Below are positions 23,433 to 24,731 of a stretch of DNA of 64,000 nt, one piece after another. Below the pieces are notes generated by a model. That model was not told the DNA's origin, did no database searches, and saw only the letters and a program-made list of their open reading frames with translations. The DNA is taken from the IMG/VR virus record IMGVR_UViG_3300025121_000011, positions 261,474-325,473 of that record; one strand, given 5' to 3'. Both the position numbers and the translations under genes were made by a program. Each line of letters starts with the position of its first letter. Position 1 is the first letter of the stretch. Source of the stretch: a virus.

Positions 23433-24198
23433 CATACAAATCCCAGGCGGCAAAACCTTTACACCAGCTACAGTCGACACTGGGTACAAAAACTTTGCAG
23501 CACAAACAATCCATGGCGGCAAAAGTTTGTCATGCGCATTATTCAACTGGATACAAAAACTTTGCACAAGATATAACCAACTCTTATACATCATCATCTT
23601 ATAAAAAAAATCATGAAGCTAATACAAGGCTGTAAATAGAACGGATTGGTTAGCAATCCATTGGATTGCCTTGATTAATACTAAGGGAGAGTTTCAGTTA
23701 TGACATCAATAATCTTTGGCATCATTGCTGCAATGCTTTTTCTGGTATTATTCGTTCTTCTGCTTTATGAGCTTGATACTTTTTATCGAGGACTGCTCGC
23801 AGAGTTTGTGGAGTGGATGGCACAACGACCAAAACGACCAAAGAAATAACAAAGAAAGAATTAAAAAAGAATGGAGTTGATCTTAACTCTCAGCTTTCTT
23901 TATTTGCTGTGGTATTTATTTATTTTTAGAGGAGAATAACATGATGGAATTTTTTCTTATTCTTTTTTTGTGGTTTGGATTCGTCTCTATTCTATACTTG
24001 CTTTCTGTTATCAGAGGAAATAGAGGAGACGAAGACTGATTACCCATTTGATACCCGTTTGGTCGTAATCCTTTTTGAATAGGGAGCGTAAATGTTCTGG
24101 AAACTTTTGCCGTTGATTATGGTTATCATTTTAACTGCACCTTACTTTTATAACTCGTACAAAGAATCTCTCATTAGAAAGAAGATTCCTGGGAATAA

Positions 24199-24273
24199 AG
24201 ACTTTTCTGAGGATGGGACTTTTTCTGAGTAATCGACTTTTTCTGAGAATGAAAAGTTTTTAAAGGGGGGGGG
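24199..24273 (+). repeat. three GACTTTTTCTGAG iteron-like direct repeats followed by a G10 homopolymer
   Basis: GACTTTTCTGAGG, GACTTTTTCTGAG and GACTTTTTCTGAG at about 17-nt spacing, then GGGGGGGGGG at 24264-24273. Confidence 0.6.
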
Positions 24274-24731
24274 GTGCAGTTTTAAAAGTTAAAAGTAACT
24301 GAGTAACGGTTGAAAACTGACCCAGGTACCTTTCTAACTTTATAAAAATATTTACTCCTTTTTATTAAAGCATCGCTGCAAATGCATACCTAAATGCATA
24401 CCTAAAAAATATAATCTGGAAATATTTAAAGAAATATCATACAACCTATTCACAGACATGAACATGCGTTTTCTTTCTACTGACACTCGCTTCAAACACT
24501 CTCCTAAAGAAAGTGAAAGAGTATTTATTACTGAGAGTGAGGATTTGCAGAATAAGCCGTAGAATCATTGTGATACTGTTATTAACAAAAAAGATGATCA
24601 ACGTGTGCGAACATATCACACAGAGTTTCCAGAGTTTCATTAAGGTCCGTATACAGATACGCATATCCGAAAATATATTCTGGAAATTTTTTTTCCAGAT
24701 ATTTATATAAGACATTCATACGGAAATACTC

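Follow-up and report, generated by a model that had tools for sequence, protein, structure and literature searches.

Positions 23,640 to 24,730 of the window, which is the whole 64,000-nucleotide stretch taken from the IMG/VR virus record IMGVR_UViG_3300025121_000011, are probably the downstream, eroding edge of a GC-rich island of small-gene cassettes together with the regulatory spacer that precedes the next gene block. The gene content of the window suggests that the source is a huge uncultivated phage from aquifer metagenomes. Exact protein matches locate the window on contigs of up to 333–352 kb from aquifer and groundwater samples (Rifle 'C687J' samples, ENA, Logan), and one 16.5-kb piece is binned in NCBI as 'Bdellovibrionales bacterium RIFOXYB1_FULL_37_110'. 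An earlier note on this DNA singled out the interval as an abrupt switch in composition that features iterons, a run of ten G residues and short repeats, and proposed either an origin or a regulatory boundary. The boundary part of this proposal is borne out, because an island of repeated modules ends here and a low-GC gene block begins. The flagged spot itself is mostly ordinary, a regulatory spacer at a module edge with slippage-type repeats, and the main value of the locus lies in the island.

The GC content measured in 200-nt windows falls from 0.48 at 22.8–23.0 kb through 0.40, 0.38, 0.41 and 0.35 to 0.32 at 23.8–24.0 kb. The drop from about 50% to about 33% that had been placed near 23.6 kb is real, however it is a staircase and not an abrupt step. 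A single change point fits best at 21,420 with a support interval of 20.4–23.6 kb, and a model with two change points, placed at 11.8 and 23.5 kb, separates segments of 47%, 43% and 36% GC. The AT-rich side is the genome baseline of ~31–36% GC, and the same values are found upstream of the island, where a 9-kb upstream record (L016) shows 31–36% GC up to window position -2960 and then 49%. Since the upstream flank is also GC-poor and the left edge is sharp, the change of composition at 21–23.6 kb is the right-hand end of an island. This island spans ~26.5 kb, from window position ~-3.1 kb to ~23.6 kb (1–23639 within the window, + strand), and at 45–49% GC it lies ~10 points above both flanks. 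The GC contents of the first, second and third codon positions (GC1/GC2/GC3) are 0.54/0.41/0.45 inside the island versus 0.47/0.36/0.27 downstream, and GC3 declines along the island toward its downstream edge (Spearman -0.62, p 1e-5). The junction was recovered in 13 public assembly records (ENA, JGI, NCBI and Logan) that differ in assembler and sample and that cross 23.3–24.5 kb with 99.7–100% identity over the compared stretches.

The small genes of the island each stand behind a conserved module of ~60 nt, which consists of a GGCGGCAAAAG box followed by a CTCTAAAAAnATAT-N8-AGTAAyTAAGGGCTGTAAG core; the full module consensus obtained by repeat analysis is GGCGGCAAAAgaTTaACagCAtCTCTAAAAAtATATtCTctnnAGTAAcTAAGgGcTGtAAG. 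A position weight matrix (PWM) for the core found 24 copies on the + strand of the window, from 142 to 21104, with none on the - strand and none further downstream, and the scores of these copies (28–55) are well separated from the maximum of 7.6 reached in shuffled sequence. Six further modules lie upstream of the window (L016 5869–8960, equivalent to window -3091 to -1), for a total of 30, all on the + strand. A Shine-Dalgarno (SD) motif and a start codon are located within 20–155 nt downstream of 22 of the 24 cores, and the genes behind the modules are without informative family matches. Short forms of the module are seen at e.g. 1819 and 19344. Outside the island, relaxed copies occur at 47.2 and 58.0 kb and a partial copy at 52.35 kb. 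The earlier statement that promoter modules occur on both sides of the switch holds in part: diverged derivatives are present on the right, however full modules are found on the left only, the last of them at 21104. The island is probably an early or accessory 'hyperplastic' region.

Several further observations concern the island. A perfect 13-mer tandem repeat, AACAGAGTTACCC, is present in 3.6 copies at 4038–4084 in the leader between a module and its open reading frame (ORF), and contigs of three assemblies end at ~4,051–4,066, suggesting copy-number variation. Two small island ORFs, at 2191–2436 and L016 8395–8658, have precomputed Pfam matches to Ribosomal_L12 (PF00542). The left edge of the island (L016 5334–5917, window -3627 to -3044) is an AT-rich, non-coding spacer of 580 nt in which direct repeats are nested, namely 57 nt in two copies, 34 nt in two copies and about six copies of CTTTGATGTTTT, including GGCTGTAAGAG, a match to the module's 3' end; this spacer is more iteron-like than the flagged site. 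No border repeats of the attachment-site or terminal-inverted-repeat type are shared by the left and right edges, which have no sequence in common. Stop-codon recoding was considered as a cause of the short ORFs and the change in composition and was rejected; with TGA, TAG or TAA reassigned, ORF coverage over 1–23 kb did not rise in a strand-specific way.

A second element precedes many of the modules. It is a two-fold symmetric palindrome of 37 nt, TTGGCAY-N5-TTGC-N5-GCAA-N5-RTGCCAA, which is present in 21 copies from window position -2663 (in L016) to 23395 and is located 15–59 nt upstream of module cores; the copies in the window that precede the last one lie between 421 and 18326. The palindromes fold with -16 to -19 kcal/mol (z -2.9 to -4.3), and 88.6% of cells are paired, versus at most 42% when the partner is slid. 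Covariation in the 37-nt stem-loop was not above shuffle controls. The sigma-54 -24/-12 consensus TGGCAY-N5-TTGCW has 18 exact matches against 0.24 expected, nine on each strand, an even split that arises because the palindrome is two-fold symmetric. This split points to a hairpin or a dimer-binding site more than to a directional promoter, and the palindromes are candidate terminators, attenuators or protein-binding sites.

The last composite element of the island is degenerate and leads directly into the flagged interval. The last copy of the palindrome, at 23395–23431 on the + strand, is diverged (CCGGCATG...CATGCCGA), however it retains the same pattern as the 20 other copies and folds with -16.1 kcal/mol (z -4.0), and the surrounding 23390–23462 aligns to the unit at 12939–13007 with 76% identity (E 4e-6). 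It is followed on the + strand by a duplicated 5' half of the module at 23446–23566, in which GGCGGCAAAA boxes at 23446 and 23515 are each followed by ACTGGrTACAAAAACTTTGCA (23479 and 23546). A half-module PWM gives a score of 24.8 at 23446, and the two copies of the 21-nt repeat are 95% identical at a spacing of 67 nt. The sequence CTTATAAAAAAAATCATGAAGCTAATACAAGGCTGTAAATAG at 23598–23639 (+), ~60 nt upstream of the first small ORF, lies below the PWM threshold and is taken as a degenerate module core from comparison by eye with the consensus CTCTAAAAAAATATTCTACATAGTAATATAGGGCTGTGAG.

Three tiny membrane-peptide ORFs had been proposed downstream of this point, and all three are present with SD motifs and hydrophobic N-terminal segments, however the third ends at 24232 and not at 24235. 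Hydrophobicity is given as the Kyte-Doolittle (KD) maximum over 19 residues. Mini-ORF1 (23700–23849, +) encodes 49 aa, in which a basic tail follows a hydrophobic helix at the N-terminus (KD 3.30), and has GGGAG 8 nt before its ATG. Its codon-position GC of 0.54/0.30/0.34 resembles that of real genes here, and it is called as a gene in several public assemblies. Mini-ORF2 (23941–24039, +; 32 aa) features a hydrophobic helix and an acidic tail (KD 2.57), has AGGAG 7 nt before the ATG, and is likewise called in several assemblies. Mini-ORF3 (24092–24232, +; 46 aa) has GGGAG 5 nt before the ATG and a KD of 1.79; its codon-position GC of 0.30/0.30/0.43 is less gene-like.

Mini-ORF3 is followed by a spacer of 499 nt, 24233–24731, with no convincing ORF and a whole-spacer fold of z -2.3 with no obvious domain. 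The duplication of AATGCATACCTA that had been reported is present in tandem at 24381–24404. It forms part of P1 (24381–24423, +), a short AT-rich module derivative in which the ATGCATAC box occurs twice and is followed by CTAAAAAATATAATCTGGAAAT, with a perfect TATAAT at 24410–24415. A second short derivative, P2 (24659–24699, +; ACGCATATCCGAAAATATATTCTGGAAAT), overlaps an 8-bp hairpin or palindrome at 24679–24699 and lies 33–73 nt upstream of the ATG at 24732. P1 and P2 share a 22-nt repeat with 91% identity, and P2 is the only sigma-70-like match on the + strand of the spacer (TATACA-18-TATATT). The motif AAAnnATATnnnC(C)TGrAA is found in the window only at 24404, 24670 and 27377, three times on the + strand and never on the - strand, where 0.15 occurrences would be expected. 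P1, P2 and the short forms of the island modules have the signature RYGCAYRY...AAAnATAT in common, so that the AATGCATACCTA duplication amounts to two copies of the upstream box of a module derivative. One assembly features a 1-nt insertion (+C) at 24389 in P1; this and the G10/G11 difference described below are spacer indels among otherwise identical contigs. A third element of the P1/P2 type was observed at 27344–27400, where tandem TTAAAATGCAAAC in two copies is followed by CTAAACCATATTTACCTGAAAGG in the spacer before the gene at 27478; this element hints at a second class of promoter in the low-GC part. No 9-mer was common to at least four spacers of the low-GC intergenic regions.

The block that begins at 24732 differs from the island edge in its packing. 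Coding density is 0.51 over 21155–24731 versus 0.86 in the next ~9 kb (24732–33769, +), a densely packed low-GC gene block with no module cores, whose first two genes (24732–24953 and 25024–25260) are tandem paralogues with 59% identity. The report of family fragments and paralogues on both sides of the boundary was confirmed. The non-coding stretch 22738–23061 (+) contains pieces of a tandem gene family located at 34.1–35.7 kb, 83–97% identical to 34235–35573, and it also features a 32-nt exact duplication and a hairpin at 22973–22999 (-24.8 kcal/mol, z -5.3). A blastx comparison of 23362–24731 with all ORFs of the window and the upstream flank revealed no significant pseudogene remnant, and the matches to Rfam-type RNA families in 22.6–25.1 kb were sub-threshold chance matches only. 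Within the low-GC block, strain polymorphisms among assemblies were observed at 25448, 25582–25596 and 25742, comprising two single-nucleotide polymorphisms and a 15-bp in-frame deletion within ORF 25549–25770, and several assembly contigs stop at 25,232 or ~25,722–25,741.

These features can be joined in one explanation, in which promoter activity, expression timing and the role of the palindromes are reasoned from the census, positions, composition, degeneracy and polymorphism of the elements. The island would be an array of individually promoted small-gene cassettes and its boundary a transcriptional module boundary. The last cassette, with the three mini membrane proteins, would be served by the decayed composite element at 23395–23639, and P2, perhaps with P1, would drive the closely spaced genes from 24732 onward. 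The 18-nt repeat described below, the 12-nt duplication and the G10 run would be slippage products in weakly constrained DNA, with the G tract remaining length-unstable and having no demonstrated target. Other tandem duplications of 12–16 nt are found in spacers of the window at 4038, 6090, 17114, 20057 and 27344.

A number of points weigh against this explanation. In the alignment the module fits no sigma-70 spacing, since its TTAACA/TTTACA box is 13 nt from the TATATT-like box and no arrangement with 16–18 nt is found. A scan for sigma-70-type sites gave fewer in 22.6–25.4 kb, where there is no full module, than in shuffles, and P1 and P2 fall below the module PWM threshold. The composite elements are putative promoters plus leader that may be read by a phage-directed transcription apparatus. 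Megablast and tblastn searches against 50,697 phage records, together with pattern and protein scans of IMG/VR, JGI metagenome contigs and GTDB genomes and searches of a database of 5.8 billion proteins, found only near-identical copies of this phage or chance matches, with no divergent relative to show conservation of any element. By composition only 0.02 runs of the G10 kind are expected, and a neutral slippage product leaves the arising of the tract unexplained. Additionally, the repeat-rich non-coding spacers at both island edges could point to a border function.

The closest described system, by a resemblance that is architectural, is that of the PeSL (promoter-early stem-loop) cassettes. 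In T4-like phages, PeSLs are composites of a stem-loop and an early promoter that border ORFans within hyperplastic regions and mediate modular shuffling (Arbiol et al. 2010, PMC2839356; Comeau et al. 2014, PMC4122927). As in these cassettes, the island features a conserved composite of stem-loop and (here putative) promoter of ~100 nt, present in many copies that are intergenic and strand-specific within a discrete plastic region; the motif ends just before the SD motif and start of small ORFan genes; and short and variant forms occur, comparable to the PmSLs of phage nt-1. However, the promoter part here is unfit for sigma-70 (-35/-10 at 17 nt), and the stem-loop is a two-tier palindrome of 37 nt with the sigma-54 -24/-12 consensus on both strands instead of a Gn-loop-Cn structure. 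In contrast to the PeSLs, all copies here are confined to a single 26.5-kb block whose GC content exceeds that of the genome by 10 points, and the phage is an uncultivated one of ~330–350 kb, not shown to be T4-like, that is known from near-identical assemblies alone. Arrays of moron or early genes with individual promoters are also present in the host-takeover module of SPO1 and in the pre-early region of T5. The island resembles these arrays in its dense small genes of unassigned function, each with its own promoter, putative in this case, and in being bounded by non-coding DNA, however nothing places it at a genome end or within a terminal repeat.

The origin of the island itself can be viewed differently. 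The 26.5 kb of GC-rich DNA may have been acquired horizontally from a GC-richer phage or host, with 23.6–24.7 kb as the recombination scar. This would agree with the sharp left step from 31% to 49% GC within 1 kb, with GC1, GC2 and GC3 all being higher inside, and with a cassette structure that recalls mobile PeSL and moron cassettes (PMC2839356). However, members of low-GC gene families are found inside the island, namely the paralogue pair 13574/27789 and fragments of the 34-kb family at 14244, 19248 and 22791. Because module copies also occur at 47.2, 58.0 and 52.35 kb, the regulatory system of the island belongs to this genome. No integrase or transposase was found among the larger ORFs scanned, the borders have no repeats in common, and the right edge is a gradient and not a step. 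Acquisition is therefore fairly unlikely as an explanation of the flagged interval, although it is compatible with an array of individually promoted cassettes and not exclusive of it.

The G tract has been considered as a functional element. The ten-G homopolymer reported earlier is present at 24265–24274 on the + strand. No other homopolymer, of whatever base, reaches its length in 73 kb (the window and its 9-kb upstream flank), where the maxima for the remaining bases are A9, T8 and C5. It is also the only G or C run of at least 7 in the 73 kb, and ~0.02 G runs of 10 or more are expected in 64 kb. The tract reads G10 in 11 of the 13 assembly records and G11 in two, L005 and L013 (Logan SRR3989312 and JGI 3300002093). 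The extra G, which is a difference between consensus assemblies and may be an artefact, is all that separates these two records from the window over 11.3 kb and 3.4 kb. Since two of the 13 records read G11, the tract is not invariant, and the difference is suggestive of slippage, not proof of it.

Such a tract could act as a hypermutable switch, in which slippage of G10 tunes transcription across the border between island and block and gives expression heterogeneity in the phage population, for example through a change in termination or read-through behind the mini-ORF operon, or in how an unrecognised promoter is spaced. The improbable length of the run argues for this idea, as do the two G11 records, which come from different samples. 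A precedent is the use of polyG tracts as hypermutable switches by Campylobacter phages, as Sorensen et al. 2021 are cited in PMC10877375. However, the tract lies within no ORF of at least 30 aa in any frame on either strand, and a +1 shift alters only a short post-stop tail. At the scan threshold it is not bracketed by a sigma-70-like hexamer pair, no module core adjoins it, and the region of the repeats and the G tract folds no better than shuffles (z -0.24). Since the tract is outside ORFs of that length, recognisable promoter spacers, modules and stable folds, no switch target can be named, and G10 versus G11 in consensus assemblies can arise from homopolymer sequencing or assembly. The earlier idea of a phase-variable G tract thus stands as far as its length varies between records, however it is weakly supported, with no evident switch target, and a hypermutable switch is unlikely.

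The comparison with known contingency loci leads to the same picture. The polyG loci of Campylobacter, Neisseria and Haemophilus, and those in receptor-binding genes of Campylobacter phages, are like this tract in having a G run of at least 9 that is compositionally improbable and, here by the consensus assemblies, differs by one unit between population samples. Contingency systems usually hold several such tracts. In contrast, the run here is the only such tract in 73 kb, it is located outside reading frames and recognisable -35/-10 pairs, and no phenotype or target gene is evident. It is distinctly improbable that G10 is a genuine intergenic switch that, at the meeting point of a multi-promoter early island and a long operon-like block, modulates read-through or initiation into the latter as bet-hedging over an entire gene module, or, in a broader version, that both border spacers are functional, as an origin or an injection-stop site.

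The repeats at 24200–24251 had been read as iterons, with three copies. The 13-mer GACTTTTTCTGAG is exact at 24217–24229 and 24235–24247, however the third copy, GACTTTTCTGAG at 24200–24211, is one T short. Tandem Repeats Finder describes an 18-nt tandem repeat on the + strand in 2.7 copies (score 68, 81% matches), in which the TCTGAG ends are spaced 18 nt. The repeat is in frame with mini-ORF3, whose C-terminus bears the first two copies (DFSE and TFSE). The translation is ...DFSE DGTFSE stop STFSE..., so that a TAA stop interrupts the repeat and the third copy would again encode TFSE. A tandem duplication of six codons with a stop codon breaking it is a better description of the repeat than iterons, and the 13-mer is not enriched elsewhere in the window (3 matches at up to 2 mismatches versus 2.5 expected).

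A replication origin, or another site acting at the DNA level at the border such as an injection-stop or packaging-related site, would use these 18-nt repeats as iterons beside easily melted DNA. The three direct repeats with an 18-nt period adjoin the 499-nt non-coding stretch, and the opposite island edge also features a non-coding spacer, of 580 nt, with 57-nt and 34-nt direct repeats. In phage T5 the borders of the early region carry repeat-rich non-coding DNA, and the likeness to these borders also speaks for such a site. However, GC skew over the window, proposed as a check for an origin, revealed no inflection: the skew is positive throughout and the cumulative skew rises monotonically with only small local fluctuations, and all substantial ORFs are on the + strand with no gene-strand switch at the site. 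No match to the DnaA box TTWTNCACA is found within 2 kb of the site, the nearest being at 26502; the absence of skew and DnaA signals is weak evidence, as many phage origins are without them. None of the neighbouring ORFs tested gave an informative match in Pfam or PHROG, or any match to a replication function, and no initiator, helicase or primase lies nearby. In the database of 5.8 billion proteins, the 198-aa neighbour, a profile of the 73/78-aa paralogues and mini-ORF1 have no homologue outside this phage. The repeat amounts to only 2.7 copies in frame at the end of an ORF, and its motif elsewhere is not above chance. The spacer has no extra AT-richness, with GC of 0.32–0.36 (0.32–0.34 in one estimate) versus a baseline of 0.31–0.36 on both sides of the island, and the left and right spacers are without common sequence. 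The site resembles iteron-type origins, e.g. lambda ori, in its ~18-nt direct repeats, which adjoin AT-rich DNA and reach into the end of a coding region. It differs from them in the low copy number, in the lack of an initiator gene, DnaA boxes, a skew signal or an AT excess over baseline, and in a repeat that is in frame and encodes the peptide repeat xFSE. The origin reading of the earlier note is not borne out by skew, DnaA boxes, initiator genes, AT content or repeats, and an origin or other DNA-level border site is very unlikely.

An assembly chimera of two unrelated genomes at ~23.6 kb, for which the compositional change only would speak, is next to impossible, as the earlier note had already expected, because the junction is crossed at 99.7–100% identity over the compared stretches in 13 assembly records that differ in assembler and sample, the low-GC composition resumes beyond the island in the same contigs, and paralogues are found on both sides.

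The remainder of the window features several loci of a different kind. Four tRNA genes were found by ARAGORN, three of which are among eight Rfam tRNA matches. A tRNA-like cluster at 54038–57320 includes two tRNA-Met (ARAGORN) and four more Rfam matches, of which two unusually long ones, at 56568–56681 (114 nt) and 57231–57320 (90 nt), may carry introns or be degenerate. A cluster related to RNA repair and RNA biology (35722–42331, 50283–51158 and 58709–60160) encodes a radical SAM protein, an RNA ligase, a Hen1 N-terminal domain, a Pnkp-type ligase and a metallophosphatase. It also encodes a Ro/TROVE-like DUF2828/DUF7788 protein that is 41–43% identical to proteins of KVP40/nt-1-type Vibrio phages and has its best matches in 702 phage records. 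Other accessory genes in the window encode a DNA ligase and ArdC. A HisF-HisI-HisE fusion and a weak SAICAR-synthetase-like ORF (62515–63762 and 61610–62494) are biosynthetic genes unusual for a phage. The gene family at 34 kb consists of three tandem paralogues at 34125–35691 with GCTGCTAATGCT-type (Ala/Asn/Tyr-rich) repeats, and its fragments are located at 14244–14285, 19248–19279 and 22791–22974. Between 34.6 and 35.1 kb, otherwise identical assemblies show dozens of differing positions and indels, and several contigs stop at ~34,273–34,299; this variation represents either a hypervariable locus or a mis-assembly of repeats.

As a possible case of phase variation in non-coding phage DNA, the G10/G11 polymorphism offers a testable lead. 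If the cassettes act like PeSLs, the island would give a promoter consensus from which the temporal programme of the phage could be predicted, and it would be a second, independent example of regulatory cassettes that organise a hyperplastic region, in a huge phage and with a promoter that is not of the sigma-70 type.

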